In this document: in pieces, positions 101 to 45,954 of the stretch | How positions within the stretch are numbered: the stretch's first letter is position 1 | Layout of the letters: each line of letters opens with the position of its first letter | Virus record (IMG/VR): IMGVR_UViG_3300022927_002093 | Span: 1-50,294 of that record | Reading direction: 5' to 3' (one strand) | Source: a virus | Taxonomy: Duplodnaviria; Caudoviricetes | DNA: 50,294 nt | Translations under genes and position numbers: made by a program | Notes under the pieces: generated by a model | What the model was told of the DNA's origin: nothing | The model's database searches: none | Seen by the model: only the letters and a program-made list of their open reading frames with translations

Positions 101-126
101 AATATATCAATAAATACCTTATAAAT

Positions 127-156
127 AAAAAAACCTCAGTCGATTAAGACTGAGGT
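127..156 (-). terminator. Intrinsic terminator downstream of the large ncRNA
   Basis: Perfect 9-bp stem ACCTCAGTC/GACTGAGGT (133-156) with 6-nt loop, followed by a U-tract on the minus strand. Confidence 0.85.
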
Positions 157-187: not shown

Positions 188-945
188 AAGGACGCTGAGA
201 CTACACGTTTGAATAACCTGTCTTTTGTGGGATTATAATTAGTTTGTTCCCCACTTGTCCACCTCATTGACAGAGGTATCAGGTCAGTGTCGGTTGGTAT
301 CGCCCAACCACTCGTTTCGTTGATAACTACTCAACCACTACTCCAATCTCTTAAGACTTGCGGTCTCACAAAGGGTCGGCCAACCCACGAGTTGTTTCAC
401 AATCGACATCCTTAGACTTGCGGTCTGAAGGAAAACTTCGTTGACAAAAGTCCGAAGTATTAGACACCTTTCGTCATCAACGCCCGAAGACTCTTGCTTT
501 TTTAATCATTGAATTAAAAGTTAGCAAATGTGGATTTATGAAAGATGTGCTTCGGGAGAAGGTCCGTACCTTTTGAGTACAGAATGCTTCACACCTCTCT
601 GTTAGCCTGCAAGCTAACGGTCAGTCAGGACTACGGTAGGTTCCAAGCTTTCACTTGTCCCTGAGGAAACCCTTTAGACTGGTACCCAGCTCTACAACTC
701 ATAGCAGTGAGTGTCGAACCGTCACCTGTATCTTCTCCTGTTGATGTCTCCATCTCACACCCGAATTTCCACATATTCAAGTGAACCCTAACCCCTCAGC
801 AGTTGCCCTTGAGGTACGGGTCGTAGATACTTTGTTTAGTTGTCAGTCATACGACTGCGAACTTCCAAGGATTGCTAAATCCAATTCTGTCCCTTTAGTC
901 CTGTTGCCAGGGTTATCTAACGACGCTAAACCGCCGATGACTAAT
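188..945 (-). ncRNA. Large structured ncRNA, GOLLD-like (boundaries approximate)
   Basis: GC-richer island with no credible ORF. Many hairpins with GNRA/UUCG-type loops on the minus strand (CUG-GCAA-CAG, AGAC-CGCAAG-UCU twice, CUUCGG, CGAAAG). Segments GAGGUGUGAAGCAUUCUGUACUCAAAAGGUAC and 3' GUAGUCUCAG resemble GOLLD as I recall it. Has its own promoters and terminator. Confidence 0.75.
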
Positions 946-1020
946 AAATCTTTGTGTAATTTAAAAAAGGGGGTTAGTCTTTTAACTAAAACTCGAACCA
1001 AAGATTGTTCGTCATTACTA

Positions 1021-1037: not shown

Positions 1038-1070
1038 CAAAGATAAGAAACTTTTTTCTTATTCTCCAAA
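1038..1070 (-). promoter_or_regulatory. Bacteroidota sigmaA-type promoter (proximal) for the ncRNA
   Basis: TTTG-N21-TATCTTTG. Confidence 0.8.
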
Positions 1071-1131
1071 TATTTTTCCTTTTTTTTTAGGAGGTAATAT
1101 ATAAATACTACTATTTCCTACAAAAGTCTTA

Positions 1132-1162
1132 CAAAGATATAAAAAATATTCTTTGTGTCAAG
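1132..1162 (-). promoter_or_regulatory. Bacteroidota sigmaA-type promoter (distal) for the ncRNA
   Basis: CTTG-N19-TATCTTTG; TATTTAT motif at 1101-1107 lies between the two promoters. Confidence 0.65.
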
Positions 1163-1174
1163 CAAAAACTAAAT

Positions 1175-1393
1175 TTAATTTTTGATTCGGTAATCGTCGA
1201 AGTTATTCATCAACGTTTCCAAACGACCTTTAGCTGATTCCATTTGTTCGATTAGTTTATCCATCTCTTCAATAATATTAGGGTGTTCTCCGATACCTGC
1301 AGGATTATTAAAGTATATCTCAAGTGTTGCTCGACTCTCTTCTATAATTGCTTCATATTTTTTGACTAACGCATTAAAAATTATTGACTTCAT
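1175..1393 (-). CDS. Small hypothetical phage protein (GIGEHP motif)
   Basis: 72 aa ORF; motif familiar from large phages. Confidence 0.75.
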   Translation of the reverse strand: MKSIIFNALVKKYEAIIEESRATLEIYFNNPAGIGEHPNIIEEMDKLIEQMESAKGRLETLMNNFDDYRIKN

Positions 1394-1423
1394 ATTATTC
1401 TGTATTTACAAATATTTATTGTT

Positions 1424-1780
1424 ATGAAAGTAATCATAGGAGATAACATTTTTAAAGTCAAACTTTGCACTACACAAAATTCTATCGCAGAGGGTATGAT
1501 GGGTAAAAGATTTAATAAAGAATTTAATGGTATGTTATTTCTTATGCCTGAGACAGGTCAACAAAGTTTTTGGACATACAACTGTGTTATTCCTTTAGAT
1601 ATTATTATGATTAATAATGGTGTTGTCGACACAATTAATTCAAACTGTTTACCCTGTGATAATAAAGAAAAATGTAAATCTTATACAGGTATGGGTAGTG
1701 AAGTGTTAGAACTCTATGGAGGAACCTGTAATGAGTTGGGCATAAAAAAAGGAGACAATGTCTCCTTTTCAATGTATTAA
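1424..1780 (+). CDS. DUF192 family protein
   Basis: GMM..GMLF..SFWTYN..IPLDII..VLEL..G pattern. Confidence 0.85.
   Translation: MKVIIGDNIFKVKLCTTQNSIAEGMMGKRFNKEFNGMLFLMPETGQQSFWTYNCVIPLDIIMINNGVVDTINSNCLPCDNKEKCKSYTGMGSEVLELYGGTCNELGIKKGDNVSFSMY
1745..1770. terminator. Probable bidirectional terminator between convergent genes
   Basis: AAAAGGAGACA-A-TGTCTCCTTTT inverted repeat flanked by A/T tracts, inside the DUF192 3' end. Confidence 0.55.
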
Positions 1781-1785
1781 TTAAC

Positions 1786-3765
1786 TTATCGTATACCAAG
1801 TATTTTTCCTACACCTGCAGCAACGTTATCTAAATTAACTGTACCACTTATTGAGGGTAATGAAGGTAAACCTGAAATCCCAATACCACCTCCCCAATCA
1901 TAATTTAAATCAACATGTGGTGTTGGGTCAATAAAATTACCATTTTTTTTCATACCGAAATGTAAGTGAGGCCCATCCGTATGACCCTTATGTGGGTCAT
2001 TGTCGCCCCCACCACTTAGTCCTATTGGTTGTCCAGCAACAACTGGCATATTTGGTACTACAAAAAATCGTTTTACGTGACAATATATAGTTTTAAGACC
2101 ATTATCATGTTCAATAGTAATTGTACCTCCACAATTATCTCTCTTGTCACTAGCAACTTTTACTTTACCATTAAGTGGACATCTTATAACAGTTCCTGAA
2201 GGTGTAGCGAAGTCTATACCGTTATGTGTTCTACTACCACCACCTCTCGAAGCACCCCATTCTCCTCCTCCAGGTGTTATACGTGTTGGTCCAATAGGTG
2301 ATGGAATTGTAGGTATACTTTGTTCAGTAATAACGTTTTCGTTAGTTAGTGCTTTTTTTTTACTCTGATTGATTTTTTCTTTGAGTAATTCAACAAATCT
2401 TCTTTGTATCATCTTAACAAACTTGACGTATGGCGTATCTCCTTCTTTTTTCCTATAACTTTTCTTACCTGAAGGTGGTCTTTTACTTCTACCGAAGTAA
2501 TTTAATGCTGAAATATTTGTAATACATTTATGTCCACCTGAATTAGCTTGAATCATCTCCCAAGCTGGTACACCTAATTTATCTAATATCGCCCACTCTG
2601 AATCACTTAACTCATTTGATGGTGTATTCATAATATCTTTAAGTCTGTCCATATATTGTTCACCTCCATCTATTGAACGTACTTTATCACCATAGAAAGC
2701 TTCTAAGTCAGCATTTGTAAATCCGACTGATTCTTGGTCAAAACTTTTACCTGATTCTGATATCCATTTAATCGTTGATAAAGGAATGATTTTGTCTTTT
2801 AATTGTGGTTCCCATTTAGCTAATACTTCTTGAGCAATCTCACCTAAGTTGACTCCCTTAAGTTCTCTCTCACCTTTAAATGGATTACAACTAGCTTGTA
2901 CTAAACCCATAGGCCACGCAATAACTAAGAAATCAGCATCAGGATTATTTTTAAATGGTGTGTATCTATCATACGAACCTGGTTTAAACATAGAACCTCC
3001 TCCGTATTGTACAATTATACCATCATCCACATAAACTTTATCACTTTCTTTTTGTTTTTGAACATATCCTTTTTGATTCAAAGCCATTTCTTCAGGACTT
3101 GCATAACCCTCTTGTTGTGCTATCTTATTTATGTTTTGAAATATGTTTAATAGTGATGGTGTGGAATTCATAACCAACTTCTCTAAGAATCCTGGTTTGT
3201 TTTTATAAGCTAACAACAATTTATTTGTCGCTAATCCTAAAGCCATTTTATTTTGCTGTAATCCTTTATCTTTTTGTAATTTAAAAATAAAGTTCATAAT
3301 GTCTTGAGGTTTAAGACCAAATCGAGCGAAATCCGCTGAATCCACTGTTGATATTAATGTAATATCATCTGATGGGAATATGTCTGATGGTGACATAATA
3401 TCAGAAAGGGTGGCTACATTTGAACGAGAGGGTCTAAATGATGTTGATGTGTCTCCCTCAACACCTGTTTGACTATCGTGGTGGTCAGTGTGTACAACAA
3501 ACATGGGTTTACCGTGGGCGAAATCAACCAACACCGGCATTGTGTCACCTTGAGCATCTTGTTTCTTAACCGCGAACTCTTTATCACCGTACTGAATAAT
3601 TTCAGAGTCAACTACCTTGATACCATTATTTTCCAAATAGTTTTTCATAGCTAATGCAGTAGTTACACCATCTAAATCTTGGTGAAAATAAATCTTGGCT
3701 TTCTTATATCTGTCGGCTAAGTCCTTTATATTTCTTAGTCCTGTCTCGTTAAGTACTTTTTTCAT
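1786..3765 (-). CDS. DHH phosphoesterase-like protein fused to a C-terminal M23 peptidase
   Basis: HQDLDG, VDF, TDHH and GGH DHH/DHHA1-type motifs; M23 motifs HNGID and GPHLHF. Confidence 0.8.
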   Translation of the reverse strand: MKKVLNETGLRNIKDLADRYKKAKIYFHQDLDGVTTALAMKNYLENNGIKVVDSEIIQYGDKEFAVKKQDAQGDTMPVLVDFAHGKPMFVVHTDHHDSQTGVEGDTSTSFRPSRSNVATLSDIMSPSDIFPSDDITLISTVDSADFARFGLKPQDIMNFIFKLQKDKGLQQNKMALGLATNKLLLAYKNKPGFLEKLVMNSTPSLLNIFQNINKIAQQEGYASPEEMALNQKGYVQKQKESDKVYVDDGIIVQYGGGSMFKPGSYDRYTPFKNNPDADFLVIAWPMGLVQASCNPFKGERELKGVNLGEIAQEVLAKWEPQLKDKIIPLSTIKWISESGKSFDQESVGFTNADLEAFYGDKVRSIDGGEQYMDRLKDIMNTPSNELSDSEWAILDKLGVPAWEMIQANSGGHKCITNISALNYFGRSKRPPSGKKSYRKKEGDTPYVKFVKMIQRRFVELLKEKINQSKKKALTNENVITEQSIPTIPSPIGPTRITPGGGEWGASRGGGSRTHNGIDFATPSGTVIRCPLNGKVKVASDKRDNCGGTITIEHDNGLKTIYCHVKRFFVVPNMPVVAGQPIGLSGGGDNDPHKGHTDGPHLHFGMKKNGNFIDPTPHVDLNYDWGGGIGISGLPSLPSISGTVNLDNVAAGVGKILGIR

Positions 3766-4076
3766 GCTCCTATGCTTCCAATGTTTAAATCACCATCTAA
3801 TGTGAATGACGCAACTTTTAAATCTGGGTTTTCTTCAAATCTAAATGTATATTTAGTTCCGTATCCACCTCGACATACTTCACTTAATTTTTCACCCCCT
3901 AATTCGATTAACCAATTTAGTTTGTTTTTATCTTTTACAACGTCTTCAATACCTTCTACTTGATTTATTGGTATACAATTACTTTTTTGTTCGTTTAAAT
4001 ATTGTCTTTTTGTTGCGTTCTCGTGAAGATTTAATATTCTATCTTTTTCAGAGTCATCAATTCTAAATTGTCTCAT
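3762..4076 (-). CDS. Hypothetical protein with EKDRILNLH...YLNEQ leader
   Basis: 104 aa ORF, ATGA-coupled to next gene; TATTTAT at 4094-4100. Confidence 0.75.
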   Translation of the reverse strand: MRQFRIDDSEKDRILNLHENATKRQYLNEQKSNCIPINQVEGIEDVVKDKNKLNWLIELGGEKLSEVCRGGYGTKYTFRFEENPDLKVASFTLDGDLNIGSIGA

Positions 4077-4109
4077 GGTAATATACTTTTAATATAAATA
4101 CTTCATAAA

Positions 4110-4140
4110 GAAAAAAACCCCTGTCATAAGGAGTTTTTTA
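4110..4140 (-). terminator. Intrinsic terminator after pckA
   Basis: AACUCCU-UAUGAC-AGGGGUU followed by a U-tract. Confidence 0.6.
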
Positions 4141-5596
4141 TCATGGTAAAAAATTTATCTTGTCTTTCGTCATTAGGTTTTTCGAATACTTCATTCATAT
4201 CATATTCTCCAATACGTTTTGGTATTTTAAGTTCATGGTATTCTATGTACTCTTCTTCATATTTTCTATCTATAACTCCGTTAATAACTCCACGAGTTTG
4301 TGATAATGAAAATCTATTGTAATGTTTATCAAAACCTGTGTTAATTAACCATACTTTTACGTTTGGATTGTTCTCTAACTTATCTTTAAACATATCACTA
4401 TAGTCAGATACCTTTCTTGGTAGGAATGGGTCTCCAAAACATGGTGAAAAGGTCGTTGTTGGTTCATCTACACCAACTTCGGTACCCGCAACCTTAGATG
4501 TATACCCTAATTCGAAATACTTTACAGCCTGTTCTGTACTTAATAAAGAAATAGGTGGTAATACACCAAATGCGTCAAAAGATAAAAAGAATATATTTTC
4601 AACTTCTATACCTCGACCTGTCATAGTAACTTTAACATCTCTTGTAATTTGGTCTAACGGATATGATACTCTAATATTTTCTGTTATCGTACTATCTGTA
4701 AAATCAGGGTTACCTTTTTCATCGACTATTATATTTTCTAATAATGATGTGTTTTGTCTGGTAAATTTACTATGAATAGCGTCCCATATTATCGGTTCTT
4801 TATATTCATCTAAATCAATTAATTTAGCGTAGCATCCACCTTCAAAATTAAATATATAATTATCATACCATCCATGTTCATCATCACCAATAAAGAATTT
4901 CAATGGGTCAGATGATAATGTGGTTTTACCTGTTCCCGAAAGACCGAAAAATAAATTAACTCCTCTACCATCTTTTGTGTTAGCATTTGCCGAACAATGC
5001 ATCGGTAAAACTCCTCTATCTATTAAAAGAGTATTCATAACAGTAAAAACACTTTTCTTTATTTCACCTGTGTAACTCGTTCCTGCTATTAAAATTTTTC
5101 TATCGTCAAAATCTACAATGACAAAGTTTTCATTTTTAACATCCTCAGGTTTATTTTTACTAACAAAATTAGGACAGTGAACTATTTCCCACTCAGTAAA
5201 TGTCCTTGAAAAGGTGGTTACAAAAGACGATGGGTCTATCAACATATTATTGAAGAATATTATTGCCCAGGGCTCTGTAGATGTAATATTAAATGAGGCG
5301 CTATGCTCATAATTGTATCCAACTACTTTTCTACTTCTAAATGTCTTTTCATTCTCAAGATACCCTTTTAACTCATCTTTGAGTAAAGTGTAACTTTCTC
5401 TTTTTACTTTTTTATTTATAACTCTTTCAAAGTCGATTGTTTTATTGGCATATTCCCCTTCAGAAAAATATCTGTCTTTAGGTGACCTACCCGTAAATTT
5501 ACCTGTATTAAAATACAATAAACCTTCTTTGGTGGTTTTCATTCCTCTTTCCTTCGCAAGGGTCATTAATTGCTCAGTAGTTTCGTAATAAACCAT
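4124..5596 (-). CDS. pckA: Phosphoenolpyruvate carboxykinase (ATP)
   Basis: TGRSPKD, MHCSAN, FFGLSGTGKTTLS, IGDDEHGW, NFEGGCYAK motifs. Confidence 0.95.
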   Translation of the reverse strand: MVYYETTEQLMTLAKERGMKTTKEGLLYFNTGKFTGRSPKDRYFSEGEYANKTIDFERVINKKVKRESYTLLKDELKGYLENEKTFRSRKVVGYNYEHSASFNITSTEPWAIIFFNNMLIDPSSFVTTFSRTFTEWEIVHCPNFVSKNKPEDVKNENFVIVDFDDRKILIAGTSYTGEIKKSVFTVMNTLLIDRGVLPMHCSANANTKDGRGVNLFFGLSGTGKTTLSSDPLKFFIGDDEHGWYDNYIFNFEGGCYAKLIDLDEYKEPIIWDAIHSKFTRQNTSLLENIIVDEKGNPDFTDSTITENIRVSYPLDQITRDVKVTMTGRGIEVENIFFLSFDAFGVLPPISLLSTEQAVKYFELGYTSKVAGTEVGVDEPTTTFSPCFGDPFLPRKVSDYSDMFKDKLENNPNVKVWLINTGFDKHYNRFSLSQTRGVINGVIDRKYEEEYIEYHELKIPKRIGEYDMNEVFEKPNDERQDKFFTMIKNSL

Positions 5597-5601
5597 TTTT
5601 T

Positions 5602-6471
5602 TTAATTTGTTAATTCATCAACCTGTATTTTAAGTTGTTGTTGTTCCAACTGATAATCTTTAATTCTTTGTTTAGCAACTTCACAATAGTTTTTTGAGAT
5701 ATCAATTCCTATCCATTTTCTACCTAACATTTCGGCAGCTAAACAAGTTGTACCTGACCCATTGAATGGGTCGAGTATTATGTCTTCTTTATATGAAAGT
5801 ATTTTAATCGCTCTGTACGGTATATCTAAAGAGAATGTCGCCTTTGTTTTTTGTTTGGTATCGGCAAAGTAATTCCACTGTCCAAAAACTAATGACATAA
5901 AATCTTTCTTGTCTTTATCTTCGTAAACAAGTTTCTTTCTCATCCCACCTTTTTTAGTGTCTTCCACCATTTGGTACTCCCCTTTCCATTGTGGTGTTCC
6001 TTTCACTTTCTTTTTATGTAACTTTTTATAGGCTAATATTACACACTCCTTAGGATTATAAATATATGGTGAAGACGGACTCATCCAACTTCCCCAAGCA
6101 GTTGTCTTACTTCTGTGTGGTGAACTCTCTTCAAGGTCTACAATACCAAAGAAACCAAATCCAATTTCTTTCATAATCATCCACATCTCAGCGGAAAAAT
6201 ATATTCTACCACCTTTATCCTGACGATTAATTTCGTATGGAATATTAATAGCAATTCTACCGTCATCTTTCAATACACGATATGCCTGTGACATCCATTC
6301 TTTCGCAAATACCTTATACTCTTCAAAGTATTTATCATCATCCCAACTATCGTATTCGATTCCAACACCATATGGTGGAGATGTAACAATTAAATCAATC
6401 GTCCCTTCCTCCATCTTCTCCATCTTCTCGATAGAGTCTGAGGTATAAATCGTGTTTGTTTTTGTGTTCAT
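5602..6471 (-). CDS. Site-specific DNA methyltransferase (N4-C/N6-A, beta class)
   Basis: TSPPY near the N-terminus and DPFNGSGTT near the C-terminus. Confidence 0.92.
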   Translation of the reverse strand: MNTKTNTIYTSDSIEKMEKMEEGTIDLIVTSPPYGVGIEYDSWDDDKYFEEYKVFAKEWMSQAYRVLKDDGRIAINIPYEINRQDKGGRIYFSAEMWMIMKEIGFGFFGIVDLEESSPHRSKTTAWGSWMSPSSPYIYNPKECVILAYKKLHKKKVKGTPQWKGEYQMVEDTKKGGMRKKLVYEDKDKKDFMSLVFGQWNYFADTKQKTKATFSLDIPYRAIKILSYKEDIILDPFNGSGTTCLAAEMLGRKWIGIDISKNYCEVAKQRIKDYQLEQQQLKIQVDELTN

Positions 6472-6688
6472 GTTTTATATTTTCTATTCTTCTATTTAAG
6501 TACCATAAAGCCTTTTCTAAGTCTTGTAAAGGTGGGTTGTCATCTTTTTTTCCACTACGTCCAATGTATTTTAAAACATTAAATAGGTACGCATCTTTAT
6601 CAATTCCCCATGCTTCAGCGACTTTAACAACCTCATAAGGATTGTCTTCACCTCCGTAGTGAGAAGGATGATTCACATGTTCTTTCAT
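6395..6688 (-). CDS. DUF3310-like phage protein
   Basis: VNHPSHY...NVLKYIGR.GKK...DLEKALWYL. Confidence 0.85.
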   Translation of the reverse strand: MKEHVNHPSHYGGEDNPYEVVKVAEAWGIDKDAYLFNVLKYIGRSGKKDDNPPLQDLEKALWYLNRRIENIKHEHKNKHDLYLRLYREDGEDGGRDD

Positions 6689-6849
6689 TTTTCTAATAAA
6701 TTTTTTATTTCTTCTTCAATTAAAACTGCCTGACTATAATATTCATCAGACTTTTTTCTATCAATACTTCCGTACTTATAAGATAATTCAAATAATTTAT
6801 CCCTTTTTTTATTTAGTCTTTTTAATTTTATATTTTTAAAAATACTCAT
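6685..6849 (-). CDS. Small protein (54 aa), Lacal_2735-like; absent from ORF track
   Basis: Manual translation MSIFKNIKLKRLNKKRDKLFELSYKYGSIDRKKSDEYYSQAVLIEEEIKNLLEK; ATGA overlap with next gene. Confidence 0.6.
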   Translation of the reverse strand: MSIFKNIKLKRLNKKRDKLFELSYKYGSIDRKKSDEYYSQAVLIEEEIKNLLEK

Positions 6850-6850
6850 A

Positions 6851-7072
6851 TTATTTAGTTTCGTATTTTTTTCTTTTATTTTCCTTCCTCAACTTTCTCT
6901 TTTTCTTATCTGACATAGCGTCAGTTTCAGTATTTAAATCATTAACAGGTTTTTTATTTTTACCTTCTTTCCAAAGGTTTTTAGGGCAGTATTCCCATCC
7001 GAACTTAACAAGGTGTATGGCCTCTTTATCTGAGACTCTCTTTATCTCACTATTTCTCTTAATTGTTTTCAT
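6851..7072 (-). CDS. Small basic hypothetical protein
   Basis: 73 aa ORF in a tightly packed run. Confidence 0.7.
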   Translation of the reverse strand: MKTIKRNSEIKRVSDKEAIHLVKFGWEYCPKNLWKEGKNKKPVNDLNTETDAMSDKKKRKLRKENKRKKYETK

Positions 7073-7250
7073 AATGTTTAAGATTTTCTTTTATTTCATT
7101 TATTGGTTTTTTGTCTGTGAACATTTTGTAGAACTCGTGTGACCAGTCATCACCAAAAATTAGTGCGTCTGAGTTGAACAAGTTTTCCATATAATTGTCC
7201 TCAGTAATTTCAATTATTTCTTTCGTTATAAATCGTTTATTGAAACCCAT
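7059..7250 (-). CDS. Hypothetical protein
   Basis: 63 aa ORF overlapping its neighbours. Confidence 0.65.
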   Translation of the reverse strand: MGFNKRFITKEIIEITEDNYMENLFNSDALIFGDDWSHEFYKMFTDKKPINEIKENLKHYENN

Positions 7251-7639
7251 TTTAAATCTGAATTAAGTTTTACTGATACTATGTGTTCTTTATCCCATTC
7301 GTTTGGTGAAATTAAAGATAAGAACTTTTCTTTGTTATTTCCATAGTATAAATGATATATGTTACCAACAACAGGTTCAAAGGAATATGTTGAGTTGTAT
7401 ATCACATCGTTTAGGTTTACTTCATCAACTAATTTATTGTACTTTTCTACGATTTGTTCAAATTCTGATTTGAATATTTTCTGTAGTTTGTTTGCACCTT
7501 GTTGCTTAAACAAGTCAATATCGTCAATCTCAATCTTTGGTCCTGATATACTTGAAGCGTAAGGTAAGATGTTTGCGTGAAACTTCTCGTTCTCCTCATC
7601 CCACACAATGTGGTCGGGATATCTACTTTTCTTTGACAT
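7226..7639 (-). CDS. DUF2452-like protein
   Basis: LPY...FEPVVGNIYHLY...FLSLISPNEW. Confidence 0.8.
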   Translation of the reverse strand: MSKKSRYPDHIVWDEENEKFHANILPYASSISGPKIEIDDIDLFKQQGANKLQKIFKSEFEQIVEKYNKLVDEVNLNDVIYNSTYSFEPVVGNIYHLYYGNNKEKFLSLISPNEWDKEHIVSVKLNSDLKWVSINDL

Positions 7640-8339
7640 TTATTTCTTTCAAATTATCTAACTTGATAGTCTGTGTAATGTAATTAATTACTTTTCTCTT
7701 TATAATTGAGAGTAAGCAACCCTCTAATGGAAATTCACTGTCAAACTTCGCCTCAAAAACTAATGAACGTTTAGTAAGTTTCTTTTTTATTTCTTCACCT
7801 CTTTCAATTAAAGTGAATACACATTTTCTTTCATCATACTTGGGATGTATCTTTCTTATGTTGAATTTATATAAAAACTTTTCACCTTTATAATCAAACC
7901 TTAGATAACCCTTTGTTGAATTTTTTTTCGTGAATTTGAAATCTTTATTCGTGTTTTGTATTAAAACTGATTCAAATACAATAGACCATATAGATTTGGC
8001 GATTAAAAAGTAGTCTTTCAGTCTGTCGTTAGCGTCTTTAGATATTTTAATTATCTCTTTTAATTCTTTAGACTCAAATCCTGAAAGTTCTTTATAAACA
8101 ATATTAGCTAATAGTATTTCATCATCAACATCTTCAGGTTCATTTTTTAAGTGAATTCTTTTTAATTTACCTGAAATAGAGTTCAAGTTAGCTAAATGTA
8201 ATGTTAATTCTTGGAATGTCGGGTATAAATGAAAGGTGTCTAACTCCTTATTTATTTTAGAAATATAGTCTAATAAAACATATTCTTTATGTTCCATATC
8301 TATAGGTTCTTGTAAAATCCAATCTAAAGGTAATTTCAT
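7623..8339 (-). CDS. Hypothetical protein
   Basis: 238 aa ORF; N-terminus LDW..PIDMEHKEYVLLDY. Confidence 0.75.
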   Translation of the reverse strand: MKLPLDWILQEPIDMEHKEYVLLDYISKINKELDTFHLYPTFQELTLHLANLNSISGKLKRIHLKNEPEDVDDEILLANIVYKELSGFESKELKEIIKISKDANDRLKDYFLIAKSIWSIVFESVLIQNTNKDFKFTKKNSTKGYLRFDYKGEKFLYKFNIRKIHPKYDERKCVFTLIERGEEIKKKLTKRSLVFEAKFDSEFPLEGCLLSIIKRKVINYITQTIKLDNLKEINVKEK

Positions 8340-8386
8340 AATTAAATATTATACCTTAAGAATAAAAAAAACTTTTAGATAATCAA

Positions 8387-10018
8387 TTAGTCCACACGGA
8401 AAACATAGTATTCAACACCGTCAATTCTAATGTCATATTCTACACCGTCATAATGTGATATATTATGACCAACACCATCCATATCTACAGCATCTTCAAT
8501 AACACCTTCTTTGTCTATAAAACTTTCTAAATCTAAGTCATATTCATGAATATAATTTTGTGGATTTCTACGAACATCATCTAAATAATAACTAACTTTT
8601 TCTTCTATCATTTCTTCTGTGGGTTCTCCCTCAGGGTTTTCTACTATCTCGTCTCTCTCTTCTTCCAACTCTTCTATTTTGTCATAAACCTCACCCCTTT
8701 CATCACTACTATATGGGTGTGAGTCTGTGTCTCTAGTCTTTCTATAAAGTTCTTCTATCTCTTGGTCTAACTCCTCATATCTTTTCTTTTGTTCATCCGA
8801 TAAAGGTAAATCTTCTGACTCGAAAACATCTTCCCATTCATCTCTTATATAATCATCATACCAAGATTCAAAATATCTCACAACCTCATCAACATCTAAA
8901 TGATTCATTAAGAAATCATCATTAAATGATTCTCTCAATCCCATATCATCAACTAATTCTGTAACTCTCATTTTAGCTAATCCATAAACATCATCCCATT
9001 CACCTACAATATATTCACTGTCAGTTTCATTCTCTCCCATCCATTTAAACGCCATAATTTCACCAGGATAAAATGATTCTGTTTCTGGTATTAAATTATA
9101 TACATCCTCATCTTCACCAATTTCATTTACTAACCACTCATTTCTTAATCCACTCATTACTGCATTGGCCTTTCTTCCTGTATCATCTAACTCATTGACT
9201 TCGGGATTCCATGCGTCTCTTTCTCTAATATCATCCATCTGTCTTAACAACCTTTCTCTCCTTATTCTCTCGTCTCTTTCTGCTCGTCTTTGTAATTCTT
9301 GTTTCGCTTTAATTTCGTCCTTAAATAGTTCAATATCATCAGCATATTTTGTTGACATATATCTTTGTATCACATTATTAATCTTATCAAATTCAGGTGT
9401 TCCTAAAATCCATCCTACTTTAAATGAATTATCAGGTGCATCATAGAAAATTTGTTTTCCGTCATATTTTTGTAACATAGCGACTTTATAGAACCTACTA
9501 CCTGATTTAGCTTTTTTATCTAAAAAATAAAATAATTTACCATCTCTATTGTAAGACATAAAGTGTGCATCGCTACTCTTAGCTGCGGTACACCATTTAC
9601 TACCCGCACCATAGTAACAACTAGCCTCATGTGTCTTTGGTATTATGACGGTGAACCTATCGTCTTCATATACGACATCTGCTCCCTCAATCTGTTTTAC
9701 GTCTCTCCTTACTTTGTTTTCGTGTTTTTCAATAGCATCTACAATATCCTTTAAAGACTCATATTGGTTAATATCTTTTATTTCTAAGTTTTTTTGAAAC
9801 TTTATAAATTTTTCAATTGCGATTTTGGCTTTAATTAAATCATCATTTAACGATTTTGGTGAAATAACTTTACCTAAAAAGTTTAAGAACTTCTGGTTGG
9901 ATGCGAGTTCTCTTGACAATAGAAATATTTTTTTAACATCTTCATCACTAAACTTATCTCTATATTTTGATAAGAATTCATCTTTCCTACCCTCTAACAA
10001 AACTTTACTAAGATTCAT
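8387..10018 (-). CDS. Phage protein with ASCYYG..SKWCT domain and long acidic C-terminus
   Basis: 543 aa; shares a domain with 19611..20942; TATTTAT at 10036-10042. Confidence 0.8.
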   Translation of the reverse strand: MNLSKVLLEGRKDEFLSKYRDKFSDEDVKKIFLLSRELASNQKFLNFLGKVISPKSLNDDLIKAKIAIEKFIKFQKNLEIKDINQYESLKDIVDAIEKHENKVRRDVKQIEGADVVYEDDRFTVIIPKTHEASCYYGAGSKWCTAAKSSDAHFMSYNRDGKLFYFLDKKAKSGSRFYKVAMLQKYDGKQIFYDAPDNSFKVGWILGTPEFDKINNVIQRYMSTKYADDIELFKDEIKAKQELQRRAERDERIRRERLLRQMDDIRERDAWNPEVNELDDTGRKANAVMSGLRNEWLVNEIGEDEDVYNLIPETESFYPGEIMAFKWMGENETDSEYIVGEWDDVYGLAKMRVTELVDDMGLRESFNDDFLMNHLDVDEVVRYFESWYDDYIRDEWEDVFESEDLPLSDEQKKRYEELDQEIEELYRKTRDTDSHPYSSDERGEVYDKIEELEEERDEIVENPEGEPTEEMIEEKVSYYLDDVRRNPQNYIHEYDLDLESFIDKEGVIEDAVDMDGVGHNISHYDGVEYDIRIDGVEYYVFRVD

Positions 10019-10118
10019 ATTGTTCTACTTTTATGATAAATATTAAAGATTATAGAAATAATCTACTCGTGGACTATTTATATAATGAATAATAAACCTA
10101 TCTAAAAAAATATCAATC

Positions 10119-10250
10119 ATGGGATGTGGATGTAAAAAGAAGGCTCAGCAAGCTCAACAAGCGGCTCAGACTCAATCACAAACAAATACTCAAGCAGTAC
10201 AAGAAGCCGTAACCAAAACTGTTGAGAAATACTACAAGAAAAAACAGTAA
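10119..10250 (+). CDS. 43 aa MGCGCKKK microprotein; absent from ORF track
   Basis: Manual translation; TATTTAT at 10075-10081, A-rich leader, terminator downstream. Confidence 0.7.
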   Translation: MGCGCKKKAQQAQQAAQTQSQTNTQAVQEAVTKTVEKYYKKKQ

Positions 10251-10275
10251 TACTTATTTTTTTAAGTTATCCAAT

Positions 10276-10302
10276 AAAAGAGTCTTTTAAGACTCTTTTT
10301 TT
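10276..10302 (+). terminator. Intrinsic terminator
   Basis: AAAAGAGTCTT-TT-AAGACTCTTTT followed by a T-tract. Confidence 0.75.
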
Positions 10303-10348
10303 GTTTATTGTATATTTTTTTACACCTATAATTTAAAAAAATATTAAT

Positions 10349-11176
10349 ATGGAAAGTGAGTTATATGGTACAAATTTGTGTAATCTTTTAGTAAACGAAA
10401 TAATAAAAGAGTTTAATATTATTGATAAAGGTCATATTAGTAATTTAGTTCTATGTGATTTATCTCAATTCATTGTTTTAAGAGGTGATACGACTATTCA
10501 AAATCCTTTAAATTACTCTAAACTATTTAAAACTTTTTTAGATGAGCTATGTGAGGTAGATAAGAATTTCAATGTTATAGATTTAATTACATACAATTCA
10601 AAACCTGATAATGAACTTATAGATATTAATATCTCATTCAATCAGGATTTAACGAGTCTTCCTATAATTGATGTGTTCCCTTTAATCGGGTATTATGAAT
10701 TTAAACATAATAACTCAGTAATAAAACACAGTAACTATAAAATTTATGACCGTTTAGTGGAAATACCTGAGTTTAAGGATTACCACGGAATATTAACTAA
10801 ATCATATAAACCTAGTTTTTCTGATGATTATTTTGGTAGAAATCTAATGAGTTCTAAATCATATGTGTTATATCTAAAATACATTGCATATAATTTATTC
10901 GAAAAACAAATTTGTAAGGATATTAATTTTAATCTTTTTTATAGTGGCGATATAAATAATTTGAATTGGGAAACCATGTCTTTTGAAATTAAAAGTGAAA
11001 GTAATATAGCTAATATTGAATGGATTAAATCTTTGATATTAGACTTATTTGATTTTAATTATTCTCACGTAAAAAAACACTTATCTTTAGAGGATTATGA
11101 TTTTAACATGGAAATCCTTTCTAAAGATAAGTGTTGGATGAAAAGAGATAAAACTTCAGAAATGATATTATTCTGA
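10349..11176 (+). CDS. Degenerate S-adenosylmethionine synthetase (MetK)-like protein
   Basis: LCNLLVNEII, FIVLRGDTT, YLKYIAYNL and LFDFNYSHVKKHLSL parallel MetK structural segments in order; catalytic motifs absent. Confidence 0.5.
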   Translation: MESELYGTNLCNLLVNEIIKEFNIIDKGHISNLVLCDLSQFIVLRGDTTIQNPLNYSKLFKTFLDELCEVDKNFNVIDLITYNSKPDNELIDINISFNQDLTSLPIIDVFPLIGYYEFKHNNSVIKHSNYKIYDRLVEIPEFKDYHGILTKSYKPSFSDDYFGRNLMSSKSYVLYLKYIAYNLFEKQICKDINFNLFYSGDINNLNWETMSFEIKSESNIANIEWIKSLILDLFDFNYSHVKKHLSLEDYDFNMEILSKDKCWMKRDKTSEMILF

Positions 11177-11455
11177 TAAAAACCCTTTGATTTTTTTTGC
11201 AGCTTCTTCAACAGTATTAAACTGTTCGTCAGGTACGTTTAGAATTATATCGTGTTTTCCATCATCTTTAGTTTCTACCAAAGTAAACGCCGGTAAAAAC
11301 TCACTACCTGTGGCTTCAACAAATTGTTTATACTCCTCCTCGTGGTCATCAATATTCCTTATGTCAACATCAATATCTTCCTCATATATAATCTTTTTTA
11401 AATTATCACAATGAGGACATCCGTTCATGGTATATAGAATAGCAAACTTCATCAC
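11168..11455 (-). CDS. Glutaredoxin-like protein
   Basis: LYTMNGCPHC. Confidence 0.85.
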   Translation of the reverse strand: MMKFAILYTMNGCPHCDNLKKIIYEEDIDVDIRNIDDHEEEYKQFVEATGSEFLPAFTLVETKDDGKHDIILNVPDEQFNTVEEAAKKIKGFLSE

Positions 11456-11769
11456 AATACTTCTTTTACCATATCAAGTAACTGTGCTTCAGTTATTACT
11501 CCTATTTTATTTGTTACATTTTCACCCCCATTAAAACCTTTAATTGCCGGTATTGAACGTACCCCTAAACTAACAGCCATTTCCTTGTTTTGTTCTATGT
11601 CAAATTTATATACGTTAACTTCACTACCTTCTTCTTTGAGTTGTTTAGCGACCTTTTCCACTATCGGGCCAATCATCCTACATGGTCCACACCAATCCGC
11701 GTACAAGTCTACTATAAACTTTTCTCCGCTGTCAATTTTTTGTTGTAATTCTTCAGTTGTTAATTTCAT
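11452..11769 (-). CDS. trxA: Thioredoxin
   Basis: WCGPC, GVRSIP. Confidence 0.92.
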   Translation of the reverse strand: MKLTTEELQQKIDSGEKFIVDLYADWCGPCRMIGPIVEKVAKQLKEEGSEVNVYKFDIEQNKEMAVSLGVRSIPAIKGFNGGENVTNKIGVITEAQLLDMVKEVL

Positions 11770-12116
11770 GATATTGTTTTATATTTCTTAAATTTATTTA
11801 AGTAAAATATTATACTGTCTGTTGAGTCTTCTTTAGACAAACAGAATAATTTATATATATTTTCATCTATTTTTTTTACGAAATAAAAAAGTATTTTATT
11901 ATCAAATTCTATTAATCCGTTATTATAAATAGTGGTTAGTCCATTGTAGTATTTATTGGACCATATTATTTTATTTGTTTTAAGTATTGATTGTAATAAT
12001 TCTACGGTGTAAAAGTCCGTCTCAAGTATAGATGGTTTAAAACCGATAATGTCCTCCGACAATTTTAATACATCGTCGGGGACACTATCGTAAACTTTAT
12101 TGTTTTCTGTATTCAA
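11766..12116 (-). CDS. Hypothetical protein
   Basis: 116 aa ORF (TTG start) with 4-nt overlaps on both sides. Confidence 0.65.
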   Translation of the reverse strand: MNTENNKVYDSVPDDVLKLSEDIIGFKPSILETDFYTVELLQSILKTNKIIWSNKYYNGLTTIYNNGLIEFDNKILFYFVKKIDENIYKLFCLSKEDSTDSIIFYLNKFKKYKTIS

Positions 12117-13195
12117 CCTAACGAAAGTTCTTCTTCAACTTCATGTGATTGCACTTCATTGTTCTTAGCTAAATCAATAGTATCACTAATCACTTTAGTT
12201 ATTTTATATGGGTCTCCGTTAGACGCTGGTCTTCTATCTTCTAAGTACCCTTTCCACGTTTTAGAGGTCTCAAGAGGGACTCTAATTGAAGCTCCCCTAT
12301 CTGATACACCCCAACTGAATTTAGTGATGTTTTGGGTCTCATGTAGACCCGTTAATCTTAGTTCGTTATTAGAACCATAGTTTTCTATATGTTCTAAGTG
12401 ACGAGTCTCAAAAGCTTCAAAAATATTTTCATAATATTCTTTGTCACCATCTTCTCTCATTCTAACATCTGAAAAATTACAGTGTAGACCTGAACCATTC
12501 CAATCACCTAATACTGGTTTTGGATGGAATTCAATATGATAATCATATTCTTCAGACATTTGTTGTAGAATATATCTTGATATCCACAAATCATCACCTG
12601 CTTTAATCTTACCTTTACTGAAAACTTGGTATTCCCATTGTCCTAGCATCACCTCAGCATTAGTACCGGTAACTTCAATACCAGCCATTAAACAATTTTC
12701 CAAATGTGAGTCAACAAAGTTTCTTCCACTAACTTGTGATTTACCAACACCACAATAATATTTACCTTGTGGTTCAGGGAATCCGTCTTTAGGGAATCCA
12801 ACTGGTTTACCGTCCTTCATAAGTGTGTATTCTTGTTCAAAACCAAACCATAGATTTTCATCTTCATTAGTAATTAAACCTCTAGTATTACTTTCGTGTG
12901 GTGTTCCATCTGCATTCATGACTTCACACATTACCAAGTAACTATCCAACATACCTTTGTTTAACGGATTGGGGTATATTGATACCGGTTTGAGTACACA
13001 GTCGGAAAAGTGTCCTTTAGCTTGTTGTGTTGATGAGCCGTCAAATGACCATTCTGGGCAATCTATTAAACCAACTCCATGTACTTTTTTCCCATTTACT
13101 TCATGGGTTGGTGAGTTAATAATTTTTACCTTACTTCTAAGGTTTGGTTCGGGTTCATATCCATCTAACCAAATATACTCTAATTTAATTCTCAT
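12113..13195 (-). CDS. glnII: Glutamine synthetase type II
   Basis: EYIWLDG, WSFDGSST, WFGFEQEY, GQWEYQ, DWNGSGLH, RLTGLHET, EDRRPASN. Confidence 0.93.
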   Translation of the reverse strand: MRIKLEYIWLDGYEPEPNLRSKVKIINSPTHEVNGKKVHGVGLIDCPEWSFDGSSTQQAKGHFSDCVLKPVSIYPNPLNKGMLDSYLVMCEVMNADGTPHESNTRGLITNEDENLWFGFEQEYTLMKDGKPVGFPKDGFPEPQGKYYCGVGKSQVSGRNFVDSHLENCLMAGIEVTGTNAEVMLGQWEYQVFSKGKIKAGDDLWISRYILQQMSEEYDYHIEFHPKPVLGDWNGSGLHCNFSDVRMREDGDKEYYENIFEAFETRHLEHIENYGSNNELRLTGLHETQNITKFSWGVSDRGASIRVPLETSKTWKGYLEDRRPASNGDPYKITKVISDTIDLAKNNEVQSHEVEEELSLG

Positions 13196-13868: not shown

Positions 13869-16646
13869 TTAGAATGTGTACTTTAAAGTCGCATTCCATG
13901 TTCTTCCAAATCCGAACCAAACAAAGTTACGTGAGTCAACACCGTTCCATGTGTACTCAGTATTTTCATCTGTGTGAATGTTTGTGTTAGACTCTGCAAT
14001 GTATGTTGTGTTCAACAAGTTATTACAGTTAACTCTGAATGTTGCATTGTTACCCAACAAATCGAATCTTGTTGTAAGACCTAAGTCTGCCAATCCGTAT
14101 GATGGTAACTTCAACGCTCCTAGGTTATCTTCAGACAAGAATGATGAACTGTTGATTGAGTAGTCCGCATAAAGACCATCAACATATCTATATCCCAAGT
14201 CTACATTTACACCTTTAGTTACACGGTAATCCAAACCTAAGTTTGCAGTTACCTGAGCAGCGTCACCAACTTTAGCACCCTCAGTATAGAGAGTGAACTG
14301 TTGTCCTTCAACAGGGTTGTTTTGGTCATCAAATACCTCCGCTTCGAAGTTATCTGTGTATCTCCAATCACCCAATGAAACCATACCTGTAACGGTGAGG
14401 TCTGAAGTTGGTCTGTACTTAGTTTCGAGTTCAAGACCTCTGTGTACTACGTTAATACCACTGAACTGTGCTGTACCATCAACAGTTGTTGAATCGTTTA
14501 CAACAACAGGTACACCTCTTGATATGAATCTGTTACCCCAATTTGTGTTGTATGCATTAACATTAACCGTCAAGTCATCTGTTGTATATCCGTAACCCAA
14601 CTCCAAAGACATGATTTCTTCGTTCTCAAGGTCTTCATTGATATTGTTTGCATATCCTGGGAATACCGCATCGAATAATGGTTGACGTGAGATTAAACCT
14701 GCGTTTGCGAACACGTTTGACTTCTCGTCGATGTTGTAGTTAGCACCACCTTTAACGTATCCACCCATTAGGTTAGATGTTTCAGAAATTGAATTACCTG
14801 GTTGGTCGAAGTAATCTTCTCTTGAATAAGCTTGGTTTGAAACTCCAGCTTGAAGAACTGCAGTTAATTGGTCATTGTCGTTATATTCAACAAGACCGTT
14901 AACTCCTACCCATCCGACATTACCTACGTTGTAGTAGTCAATCTTAGGACCTGTTAGTCCTGTGTTGTTGAATGGACTTGCTTCGATAGTAGTTTCTACA
15001 ATCTGTCCCCCGTTAGAATTTCTATTACCACCTGAGTAGTATGCATCAAAACCCATAAGGTTGTTCAACGCTCTGTAGTGATATCCCTTATACTTACGAA
15101 GGTCTAAACCAACAGATGCTGTCCACTTATCTTTATTGTAAGTTAAGTTAGAAATCGCACCAACCCAGTTGTGTGAGTTCATAGATGCTCTACGAATCAT
15201 ACCACCACCTGTGTAAATAGTTCCTGATGTGTCTGCGTCAATACCCCATTGGTTTGAACCGATGAGAGCACCTTCGTAGTTTCCGTTTACACTACCATCG
15301 TGTGGTGTTGCACCTGCTTGGTTATCATCAACAACTGCGTCGAAGTTAACAGTACCATCAGAGTTACGGAATTGGGTCAAACTATCCTCATACATGAATG
15401 AGTATAAGTCTTGTTGGTAAGGGTGGACATCATAGTTTCTACCACGAGGACCTGTTCCTCCACCACGACCTGCAGAACCGTAGACAGATGTATTCAATGT
15501 TAAGTTTTCATTGATATCCCAATCCCAGTTGAAAGTTGCGAGTGGTTTGTTGTAGAAGTTTCTTCTCATAGAGAATTCTTCACCGTCCAATGTACCTCCG
15601 TTAGAGTTCCATGTAACATCGAGTTCACCATCGTCAAGTACCTGACCTCCGTCACCGAAGTAGTCGTAGTCACGAATAGAAAGCCATACGTCTCTTTGGT
15701 GGTGCCATTGTCCTGCACCCATAACAGACAAGTTCAACGCGTGTTTGGAATCATCAGGTGCATATCCAACAGCACCGAAGTAGTTCCATCCCTCACCACT
15801 TGTGTTATCAATGTAACCGTTACCGGCCCACTTACTCAACAAGAATGAAGACGCCCATCCGTTTTCATTTTTACCTGTGTTATAGTTAACAGTTGTTTTG
15901 TTGTATCCATTGTTACCAATAGTCTCAGATACAGAACCTCCTTGTTCTTTTTCTGCCGCCTTAGTAGAAATAGAAACGGTACCACCAACAGATGGAACCG
16001 CCAAACGTGAAGAACCCAAACCTCTTTGGATTTGAATACCTGAAGCAACGTCAGTAAGACCTTGCCAATTGGACCAGTAAACCCATCCATTCTCCATATC
16101 GTTAACGGGTTGACCGTTGATAAGGAAAGATGTGTTACGTTGGTCAAAACCTCTTAGAGAGAGTCTGGAGTCTCCGTAACCACCGCCCTGTTTTGTAGCA
16201 TAGACACCAGGTGTTCTATTCATAATTTCAGGGAATTCTTGGTTACCTGTCTTCAATGCAATCTCAGCAGGTCCAATAGTTGATACCGCAACAGGTGTTT
16301 CCCTCACTTTCGCAAAGTCAACAACGTTAACGATAACCGCAGCTTCGTCAAGACCAAGTGCTGTCGTAGTCATTGATATGGTTCCCATATCATTTTGTGC
16401 AGGTATAGTTAGTGTTTCGTAACCCAAGAAACTAACAACAACGTTACCTGTAGCCTCTTCGTCAAGAGTAAATTCGCCTGATACGTTAGTTGATGTTCCT
16501 CGTGTGTTACCTTCAAGATAGACACTAGCCCCAATAAGCTCATTGCCTGTCTTTGAATCCACGACTTTACCTGTAATTTGAGCTGATAGTGTCAATGTTG
16601 ATACCATCATCGCTCCGAAAATAAACAATCGATTAATTAATTTCAT
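13869..16646 (-). CDS. TonB-dependent receptor (Bacteroidota type, with carboxypeptidase-regulatory-like N-terminal domain)
   Basis: Signal peptide, ITGKVVD..LIGASV, plug LRGFDQRN..LINGQPVND, C-terminal GRTWNATLKYTF. Confidence 0.93.
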   Translation of the reverse strand: MKLINRLFIFGAMMVSTLTLSAQITGKVVDSKTGNELIGASVYLEGNTRGTSTNVSGEFTLDEEATGNVVVSFLGYETLTIPAQNDMGTISMTTTALGLDEAAVIVNVVDFAKVRETPVAVSTIGPAEIALKTGNQEFPEIMNRTPGVYATKQGGGYGDSRLSLRGFDQRNTSFLINGQPVNDMENGWVYWSNWQGLTDVASGIQIQRGLGSSRLAVPSVGGTVSISTKAAEKEQGGSVSETIGNNGYNKTTVNYNTGKNENGWASSFLLSKWAGNGYIDNTSGEGWNYFGAVGYAPDDSKHALNLSVMGAGQWHHQRDVWLSIRDYDYFGDGGQVLDDGELDVTWNSNGGTLDGEEFSMRRNFYNKPLATFNWDWDINENLTLNTSVYGSAGRGGGTGPRGRNYDVHPYQQDLYSFMYEDSLTQFRNSDGTVNFDAVVDDNQAGATPHDGSVNGNYEGALIGSNQWGIDADTSGTIYTGGGMIRRASMNSHNWVGAISNLTYNKDKWTASVGLDLRKYKGYHYRALNNLMGFDAYYSGGNRNSNGGQIVETTIEASPFNNTGLTGPKIDYYNVGNVGWVGVNGLVEYNDNDQLTAVLQAGVSNQAYSREDYFDQPGNSISETSNLMGGYVKGGANYNIDEKSNVFANAGLISRQPLFDAVFPGYANNINEDLENEEIMSLELGYGYTTDDLTVNVNAYNTNWGNRFISRGVPVVVNDSTTVDGTAQFSGINVVHRGLELETKYRPTSDLTVTGMVSLGDWRYTDNFEAEVFDDQNNPVEGQQFTLYTEGAKVGDAAQVTANLGLDYRVTKGVNVDLGYRYVDGLYADYSINSSSFLSEDNLGALKLPSYGLADLGLTTRFDLLGNNATFRVNCNNLLNTTYIAESNTNIHTDENTEYTWNGVDSRNFVWFGFGRTWNATLKYTF

Positions 16647-36831: not shown

Positions 36832-36863
36832 CAAATATAGGTATAAAGTTTTAACTCACCAAA
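36832..36863 (-). promoter_or_regulatory. Bacteroidota sigmaA-type promoter
   Basis: TTTG-N20-TATATTTG. Confidence 0.75.
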
Positions 36864-45203: not shown

Positions 45204-45954
45204 TTTCTAAATCCTCTATGGAATTTATTTTAAAGTTTAGGAATGGTCTTGGGTTGGATAGGTCAAAAGTTTCGTATTTATTTTTATCTACGTAGTATAT
45301 ACCGTACCCATGTCTATTCACACTCTCACCAAAGTTTTGTTGTATGGTAGAGCCAATCATATACGCTTTCTTTTTACCAGGAATACTGAATGTCTGTCTT
45401 TTATGTATGTCACCACATAATACTAAGTCACACCCTTTGAATCTATCTGTGTCAAACCCATCTTCAAATTTGTATCCAATATCAGTTGTAAGACCTTGTA
45501 TAGGTCCATGGAATAAACCAATTTTAAGATTATCTGACTTATCTATTTGAGGTCTAATATTGTGATTAACTAATGAATAAACAACCCAATCAATATTCTC
45601 GTCAGTATATACACCTCCATCTTTATAATATACTATCATATTATTTTCTAAAGAATCTATAATAGGTGACAATGCATCTACCCTATTTAAATTACTTTCC
45701 AAAAAATCATGATTACCAATAATTAAAACTGTCTTACATATCTTAGAACATTCAGTAAGAATCCACACAACAAAATTAATTAACTCAGGTGTCATCTGAT
45801 TTTTAGAATGTACTAAATCACCTGTAAAAACAATTCTATCAGGTTCTTGTTTTTTCCATTCCTTTAACGCATTAGTCATAATTTCACGATATAAATCGTG
45901 GTCTTTAAATAACCTTACGTGAAGGTCTGAAAAATGTATAATCTTATTAATCAT
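45175..45954 (-). CDS. SbcD/Mre11/gp47-like metallophosphoesterase nuclease
   Basis: SDLH, TGDLVH, GNHD, FHG, GDIH, QQNFGE. Confidence 0.88.
   Translation of the reverse strand: MINKIIHFSDLHVRLFKDHDLYREIMTNALKEWKKQEPDRIVFTGDLVHSKNQMTPELINFVVWILTECSKICKTVLIIGNHDFLESNLNRVDALSPIIDSLENNMIVYYKDGGVYTDENIDWVVYSLVNHNIRPQIDKSDNLKIGLFHGPIQGLTTDIGYKFEDGFDTDRFKGCDLVLCGDIHKRQTFSIPGKKKAYMIGSTIQQNFGESVNRHGYGIYYVDKNKYETFDLSNPRPFLNFKINSIEDLENGKEKLVNV

Follow-up and report, generated by a model that had tools for sequence, protein, structure and literature searches.

The window, meaning the whole stretch of 50,294 nucleotides of viral DNA analysed here (IMG/VR record IMGVR_UViG_3300022927_002093), carries genes for a primase, SbcCD, a sigma factor and methyltransferases according to PHROGs matches, and no virion genes were found in it. 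Host-type metabolic genes for PEP carboxykinase, glutamine synthetase, PRPP synthetase and a PALP enzyme lie at 4124-5596, 12113-13195, 36851-37783 and 45951-46868. CarboxypepD-like and TonB plug domains, of the SusC-like outer-membrane transporter type, occur in two large proteins encoded at 13869-16646 and 21876-24332 on the minus strand. Near the beginning of the window, a long noncoding RNA is encoded on the minus strand between the following features.

1786-3765, minus strand: DHH-like protein fused to an M23 peptidase domain, found in 40 of 44 homolog loci
1424-1780, plus strand: DUF192 gene, found in 42 of 44 homolog loci
1175-1393, minus strand: 72-aa ORF matching no family above the cut-off, near GOLLD in 26 of 44 homolog loci
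1161-1132, minus strand: predicted distal promoter of Bacteroidota type (TTG at 1161-1159, TATCTTTG at 1139-1132)
1069-1038, minus strand: predicted proximal promoter (TTG at 1069-1067, TATCTTTG at 1045-1038), with a start near 1033
1031-1021, minus strand: boxA-like motif GTTCTTTGAAA, its single occurrence in the window
937-1015, minus strand: extra leader, in which 1015-999 would pair with 954-937 and enclose a small hairpin and a CCCCCUUUUUU tract (about 974-963)
126-156, minus strand: intrinsic terminator with a 9-bp stem and a U tract, found in 45 of 45 homologs

The DNA likely belongs to a large phage infecting Bacteroidota. A Bacteroidota-phage context had been proposed in the first-pass annotation, and it is backed by the TAnnTTTG promoters, by Shine-Dalgarno-like sequences before only 2 of the 45 ORFs and by relatives that encode bS21; this support is indirect and the host is a prediction only. 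Five long related phage contigs that carry GOLLD (1.05 Mb) were used for genome-wide checks. The sigma factor of the window is found at 68-84% identity in four of the five, and four of the five encode bS21. The sigma-factor search indicated no host, and no close relative in culture came out of the primase search. The bS21-encoding Bacteroidetes phages described in PMC9723584 have genomes of 293-331 kb and a G+C content of 31.0-33.7%. The related contigs resemble them in reaching 297 kb with bS21 and tRNAs, and the G+C of the window (32%) falls in this range. Unlike those phages, the window DNA is best represented in salt-marsh runs, and the likeness does not amount to placement in the five named clades. 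The main text of PMC9723584 does not mention GOLLD.

The first-pass annotation described 188-945 as a GC-richer island of about 760 nt, and this was confirmed. The G+C fraction of 188-945 is 0.455 versus 0.323 in the window, a value reached by 0 of 486 other 758-nt stretches. The minus strand also folds better than its shuffles, with a z of -3.4 for 188-945 (30 shuffles) and -2.5 for 938-190 (20 shuffles). The description of a minus strand packed with hairpins closed by GNRA or UUCG loops is borne out more weakly than stated. The minus strand has four GNRA-capped hairpins of at least four pairs, a number that 22 of 2000 shuffles attain, and the plus strand has one. No hairpin is capped by UUCG; the UUCG at 488-485 is located inside a 7-bp long-range helix, and the other one is within a stem.

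Comparison with Rfam, proposed as a check of the GOLLD label, returned GOLLD (RF02032) as the sole match in the whole window. The match extends over 599-192 on the minus strand with 305.3 bits and an E value of 1.5e-86, and covers model positions 1-416 of 416; the gathering cut-off is 150 bits, and the Rfam model spans the 3' domain only. Homologous loci also score on RF02032, with 304.9 bits for L012 and L013 and 306.9 bits for L015 and L020. ROOL, group I and II introns and RNase P gave no match at gathering score in the window. The core is 746 nt long in the window (937-192) and 724-761 nt across 45 homologs, with the variable but structured 5' domain and the total of about 700-830 nt that characterize GOLLD. 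It is phage-encoded, as GOLLD RNAs are in phages and prophages, and its homologs lie in IMG/VR contigs of up to 297 kb. The RNA is, with near certainty, a full-length member of the GOLLD family. The GOLLD family, its link to phages and its cage structures have already been published. Of the two options first offered, a GOLLD member or a new relative, the former stands and a new class of relative is dropped, and the extent of 188-945 proved to contain the core and to leave the 5' leader, promoters and terminator outside. An identity as another kind of RNA (group I or II intron, RNase P or ROOL) or as a repeat island without function is extremely improbable. Such RNAs share the large size and the GNRA loops, and nothing else was found in favour of this explanation; the only Rfam match is GOLLD, covariation is strong, and the element lies between genes and has a promoter and a terminator of its own.

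Homologs were collected with a 17-letter pattern from the 5' part, which gave 92 IMG/VR loci, of which 85 were homologous and 7 without homology were dropped. Patterns from the 3' domain were unproductive, giving 10 loci without GOLLD, 2 loci (one of them real, L020), none, and 5 loci; L018 and L019 showed no homology and were dropped. Exclusion of partial loci left 77 full-length entries including the window, some of which are the same contig twice, and merging of identical cores reduced them to 45 distinct homologs. These are 68-88% identical to the window and form 25 clusters at 95%. The only match among cultured phages was one of 57 nt, to 15 mycobacteriophage records. Two motifs of the clade were not found in the readable supplements of PMC12286853, in which gapped alignments may hide matches.

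Covariation among these 45 phage homologs, the other check proposed at the outset, is strong. The consensus fold has 199 pairs, 83 of which show double-sided change. In the 5' domain, 99.4% of the cells of 84 pairs are paired and 39 pairs show double-sided change, and 0 of 500 shuffles are as high. Controls in which the 5' domain structure was slid along the alignment gave 30-41% paired; this control is lenient because the structure was derived from the same alignment, and more weight falls on the double-sided changes. Five tertiary contacts, either named from env-38 or visible in the alignment, are paired in 98.9% of cells, with 7 of 19 pairs covarying. Together, the Rfam match and the covariation demonstrate a GOLLD secondary structure for the core, which is organized as follows.

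About 937-600, minus strand: GOLLD 5' domain (equivalents of P1-P12), supported by covariation and outside the Rfam model
907-904 and 750-747, minus strand: GNRA loops of the 5' domain, from the loop tables
808 and 802, minus strand: G808-C802 contact (B2), from the tertiary pair test
707-702 with 612-607, minus strand: kissing loops L10-L12, from the tertiary pair test
599-192, minus strand: GOLLD 3' domain, the part matched by RF02032
499-539, minus strand: variable A/U-rich linker of 41 nt (36-65 nt across the 45 homologs)
414-426, minus strand: first copy of a 13-mer, forming helix P20 and loop L20, the B7 donor in env-38, from the Rfam alignment
377-382, minus strand: loop L21a UGGCCG, which forms the self-kissing bridge B8 in env-38, from the loop table
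354-366, minus strand: second copy of the 13-mer, forming helix P21b and loop L21b (self-kissing bridge B9), with the B6 receptor pairs at its base

The 13-mer had been noted as an exact duplication, and both copies of AGACCGCAAGUCU are indeed present on the minus strand (366-354 and 426-414), with no further copy in the window; a repeat of at least 13 nt arises in 4 of 1000 shuffles. The exact duplication is kept in only 6 of 45 homologs. The copies are separate helices with a common loop. In contigs of three RNA runs, P20 carries compensatory changes from A-U to G-C and from G-C to A-U, and the P21b stem covaries among the homologs.

A proposed pairing of AGUCAU (942-937) with AUGACU (850-845) did not survive the covariation test. 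The letters are complementary, yet all six pairs form in just 2 of the 45 homologs, and 37.7% of cells pair versus 40.7% in shuffles, with 482 of 500 shuffles pairing as well. The partner of GACUG (848-844) is CAGUC (857-853), where three of five pairs covary, and the partner of GUCAU (941-937) is AUGAC (1015-1011) in the leader.

The closest structural reference is env-38 GOLLD, an 833-nt RNA that forms a 14-mer cage (PMC12286853) and whose structure is listed in PMC12990946 as PDB 9MEE. Helix and bridge names were mapped by eye on the env-38 sequence and the bridge table (supplement 1 of PMC12286853). By this mapping, the window RNA resembles env-38, also of phage origin, in having the 5' helices in the same order and the loops of B1, B2, B3, B4 and B6-B10. 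The loops are strongly conserved. L2 and L8 are GNRA loops in 45 of 45 homologs, and an A-run is kept in L14 and AA in L24. L20 is GCAA and L21b is CGCAA in every homolog. The GC within L20, L21a and L21b is invariant (45/45); in L21a the GGCC palindrome is found in 38 homologs and AGCU in one, the same GGCC/AGCU switch that is described for L21a in PMC12286853. At the base of P21b, columns 724/740 (U-A) and 725/739 (G-U) correspond to U669-A682 and G670-U681 of env-38.

The pairs that would hold the structure together also change in concert. The B2 and B4 pairs covary; for B2, G808-C802 becomes C-G in 3 of 45 homologs, a single event common to three close relatives. At the L10-L12 kissing pair, 24 homologs have C-G and 21 have U-A; the contact of the window itself contains one U-U mismatch, a pair that 8 of 45 homologs break. 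The L22 and L27 pseudoknots, shared with env-38, also covary, with columns 779/792 being A-U in 24 and C-G in 21 homologs and columns 837/897 being U-A in 27 and C-G in 18, so that both are paired in all 45.

The main structural difference from env-38, besides the shorter length, is in P11. In the window clade, a single hairpin of about 45-60 nt makes up P11 (columns 384-444), whereas residues 287-393 of env-38 form three branches over 107 nt (by eye). The three-branch P11 with the L11b-L11c bridge B5, characteristic of the env-38 type, was not seen in this by-eye mapping, and bridge B5 looks absent because P11 is reduced to one hairpin. Other GOLLDs with a short, reduced 5' domain still multimerize, as judged from their descriptions: the Streptococcus agalactiae RNA has 700 nt and is a 12-mer, and the env-46 RNA has 744 nt and is listed as a 6-mer in CASP16 (PMC12990946, PMC12248019). 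The S. agalactiae RNA is described as having no P21b, while the window clade keeps this helix. The RNA is thus predicted with good confidence to self-assemble into a hollow RNA-only cage, whose subunits would join through loop contacts equivalent to bridges B1-B4 and B6-B10 of env-38. A cage is likely and its size is not predictable, given 12-mers and listed 6-mers among the GOLLDs whose 5' domain is shorter; the reduction of the P11 branches likewise makes the subunit number unpredictable.

The core very probably belongs to a stand-alone transcription unit of its own, spanning about 1161-126 on the minus strand. Unlike env-38, the window GOLLD has its own promoters, boxA-like motif, leader helix and terminator. 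The two promoter sites fit the Bacteroidota sigma-A consensus, TTG with TAnnTTTG at -12 to -5 (PMC9723704), and the predicted start at about 1033 is derived from this box position; the standard sigma-70 scan does not cover Bacteroidota promoters. TAnnTTTG occurs 77 times on the two strands of the window. Its position is conserved at this locus, since two promoter sites within 300 nt of the core are found in 39 of 45 homologs, and TAnnTTTG precedes the boxA-like motif or its variant by 5-66 nt in 45 of 45. Initiation by the host sigma-A polymerase at both tandem promoters is likely, judging from the conserved motifs. At the other end of the unit, the stem of the terminator covaries. A 107-aa ORF at 781-1104 on the plus strand, antisense to the leader and the 5' domain, has no Pfam match and is probably a shadow frame.

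Metatranscriptome RNA runs were found using the GOLLD stretch. Six of them contain 56-65% of the words of 130-1100, and their contigs cover 178-1004, several without difference from the window, which attests presence in RNA libraries only; the contigs carry no strand, end or level information. RNA contigs are nearly absent over 1051-12000, versus 30 of 30 bins filled by the DNA run X5, a weak hint at most for contigs that cannot rank genes.

Between the boxA-like motif and P1, the leader measures 80-95 nt, and its column identity is 0.58 versus 0.86 in the core. A leader helix that abuts P1 with no spacer is supported by covariation. Among 32 distinct leaders, the leader's own partner strand ranks first in 19 and within the top two in 27, and the predicted helix has a mean energy of -16.4 kcal/mol with its own partner versus -7.8 kcal/mol with foreign partners. 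In the proposed mechanism, this helix would close directly 5' of P1 and then be trimmed, standing in for the upstream tRNA of tRNA-linked GOLLDs; the trimming is given an even chance. The nearby DHH-like nuclease could bear on how the RNA is processed.

The leader may instead be retained as an extra variable 5' module of a mature RNA of about 840 nt, stacking on P1 or protecting the 5' end, which is a real possibility at somewhat below an even chance. RNA contigs enter the leader and extend to 983 and 1004, the helix adjoins P1 directly, and 1033-192 comes near env-38 (833 nt) in length. These points are set against the far lower conservation of the leader, the swapping of the leader at 938 between variants that are otherwise 98% identical, and the start of env-38 itself, whose 5' end is equivalent to window position 937 and to P1 (by eye), with no counterpart of the leader in the env-38 construct. 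RNA contigs of runs X15 and X20, close to the window core, diverge from the window exactly at 938, which suggests modular exchange of the leader between close variants.

A pyrimidine tract (CCCCUUU or UCCUUUCC; 974-963, alignment columns 78-90) is kept in the otherwise variable leaders, often right after the small hairpin. It may loosely resemble the 3' end of 16S rRNA. Pairing of CCCCUUU with AAAGGG (895-890) is energetically possible and was rejected, there being no consistent best partner and no clear covariation.

Of the 45 homologs, 39 carry the boxA-like motif GTTCTTTGAAA unchanged, one has a change of the last base, and five have the GTTCTTAC variant. In L064, L034, L071, L042 and L068, GTTCTTACAC/ATT replaces it in the same place, a natural variant for binding tests. 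The gamma-proteobacterial boxA consensus is GYTCTTTAANA (bioRxiv 10.1101/091223), from which the motif differs at one position, with G at position 8; this consensus is limited to gamma-proteobacteria. BoxA acts in antitermination and in rRNA folding (PMC10250234, bioRxiv 10.1101/091223). As in bacterial rrn leaders, which have the order boxB-boxA-boxC and involve NusB, NusE, NusA, NusG, SuhB and S4, tandem promoters in the window are followed by the boxA-like motif, and the motif is identical to one before 16S rRNA in Bacteroidota genomes. Unlike an rrn leader, the window motif precedes a phage RNA, and no boxB hairpin, boxC or leader-trailer helix was found in the window.

The combined pattern of promoter and motif was searched in 5 of 64 parts of GTDB, which gave 120 loci. 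A 16S 5' motif is located 75-176 nt downstream in 17 of these, 15 of which are titled Bacteroidota. A further 60 GTDB loci were scanned with Rfam, and a stable RNA lies directly downstream in 12: 23S rRNA in five, tmRNA in two, 6S-like RNA in two and tRNA in three. Four of the five 23S cases are 16S-23S spacers of non-Bacteroidota. Most other cellular matches have no known RNA downstream, and some end at a contig edge. Among 80 GTDB loci with full flanks, 10 have 16S rRNA downstream; 11 loci are cut within 130 nt. Similar sequence follows promoter and boxA within four groups of loci from Bacteroidota or Ignavibacteria (L141/L207/L170, L143/L164, L178/L220 and L212/L223); their scanned members have no Rfam hit and may represent uncatalogued stable RNAs.

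In the five long related contigs, promoter and boxA together gave 10 matches versus 2 for the reversed control. Five of the 10 are GOLLD, present by selection, and the remaining five precede tmRNA (four) or a tRNA cluster (one); the tRNA clusters of contigs G001-G004 have no such match. The motif thus marks stable RNA genes in the related phages. The tmRNA genes lie at L243:1528-1917, L245:1539-1928, L247:1111-1494 and L251:1539-1928 (78-97 bits, four of the five related contigs) and start 5-6 nt after the boxA-like motif. NusB is encoded in none of the five contigs.

On this analogy with host rRNA genes, the motif may recruit host NusB and S10, sustaining transcription and aiding the folding of a long untranslated RNA, and such Nus recruitment is slightly favoured. 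In the window, the motif lies about 2 nt past the predicted start and for this reason could instead serve as an element of the promoter or of processing. That the 11-mer is not a Nus-binding boxA and acts instead as the start sequence of strong promoters or as a nuclease processing signal of stable RNA genes is considered rather unlikely. Such an element would suit the short spacings: many homologs have the motif 5-6 nt past the -7 box, and mature tmRNA begins 5-6 nt beyond the motif. The occurrence of the motif before host tRNA, tmRNA and 6S-like genes, where antitermination has no established need, would also suit it. In contrast, the motif stands anywhere from 5 to 66 nt away from the -7 box, a poor fit to a fixed promoter element, and the same letters are present in 16S-23S spacers, the known second position of boxA (PMC10250234). 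No report of NusB binding in Bacteroidota was found in the literature, and no paper linking GOLLD to boxA or to an rRNA-type leader was found in the literature covered, which does not include the 2009 discovery paper. If Nus recruitment is true, the phage would use host rRNA machinery for a non-ribosomal structural RNA. Taken together, the sequence of events from promoters through Nus recruitment, leader helix and core folding to cage assembly is judged reasonably probable.

GOLLD commonly, though not universally, adjoins or contains a tRNA, and env-38 follows a Met-tRNA; the window GOLLD has no tRNA upstream. ARAGORN found no tRNA in the window, including the linker at 499-539, as the first-pass annotation had stated, and the same holds generally for the clade loci scanned: no tRNA lies within about 3 kb of GOLLD in 60 homolog loci (of the 85 homologous loci) or in L011-L020. 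The five long contigs all encode tRNAs, at least about 33 kb away from GOLLD. The tRNA-storage idea described in PMC12990946 is inapplicable here because the linker is short and holds no tRNA, and tRNA storage cannot be the only role of GOLLD because this clade has no neighbouring or embedded tRNA. The clade thereby removes the tRNA confounder from the question of GOLLD function.

The cage might bind or shelter ribosomal or other stable-RNA material during infection, which is the weakest step of the mechanism and a doubtful one, and a role of GOLLD in phage control of host translation is similarly tentative. This role is favoured on two grounds, namely that bS21, tmRNA and tRNAs occur in these phages under the same signal and that GOLLD is reported to pull down ribosomes, as cited in bioRxiv 10.1101/2024.12.08.627333; the only link of GOLLD to bS21 or ribosomes in this analysis is their co-presence in genomes. 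The same preprint describes the cage structure and GOLLD expression that rises at lysis. Nearly as likely as the translation role, and improbable in itself, is a cage that serves as a decoy or store, absorbing host RNA-cutting defence enzymes or storing nucleotides and metal ions, with no link to translation. The stable-RNA style of the expression signals, the increase of GOLLD during lysis (bioRxiv 10.1101/2024.12.08.627333) and a short linker that rules out tRNA storage would fit such a role. However, a decoy has no obvious need for the conserved multi-bridge architecture, and no defence-related gene travels with GOLLD, its conserved neighbours being DUF192, the DHH-like/M23 protein and the 72-aa ORF. 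The broader proposal, which extends the translation role, is that large bS21-encoding Bacteroidota phages make GOLLD as their hosts make rRNA, with NusB and S10 acting at boxA, the leader helix cut to free P1 where no tRNA is present, a cage size unlike that of env-38, and GOLLD forming one takeover kit with bS21, tmRNA and tRNAs; it is speculative and on balance unlikely.

The locus is a compact natural cassette of promoters, boxA-like motif, leader helix, core and terminator that is expressible in laboratory strains of Flavobacterium or Bacteroides. The 45 homologs provide independent covariation for two inter-subunit contacts known from cryo-EM (B2 and B4), and with the reduced P11 one could test how the content of the 5' domain sets cage size. 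Separately, six unrelated viral contigs (L001, L002, L003, L005, L006 and L010) contain a tRNA to which ARAGORN assigns a four-letter anticodon (gaaa), with an Rfam score of 58.5 bits.
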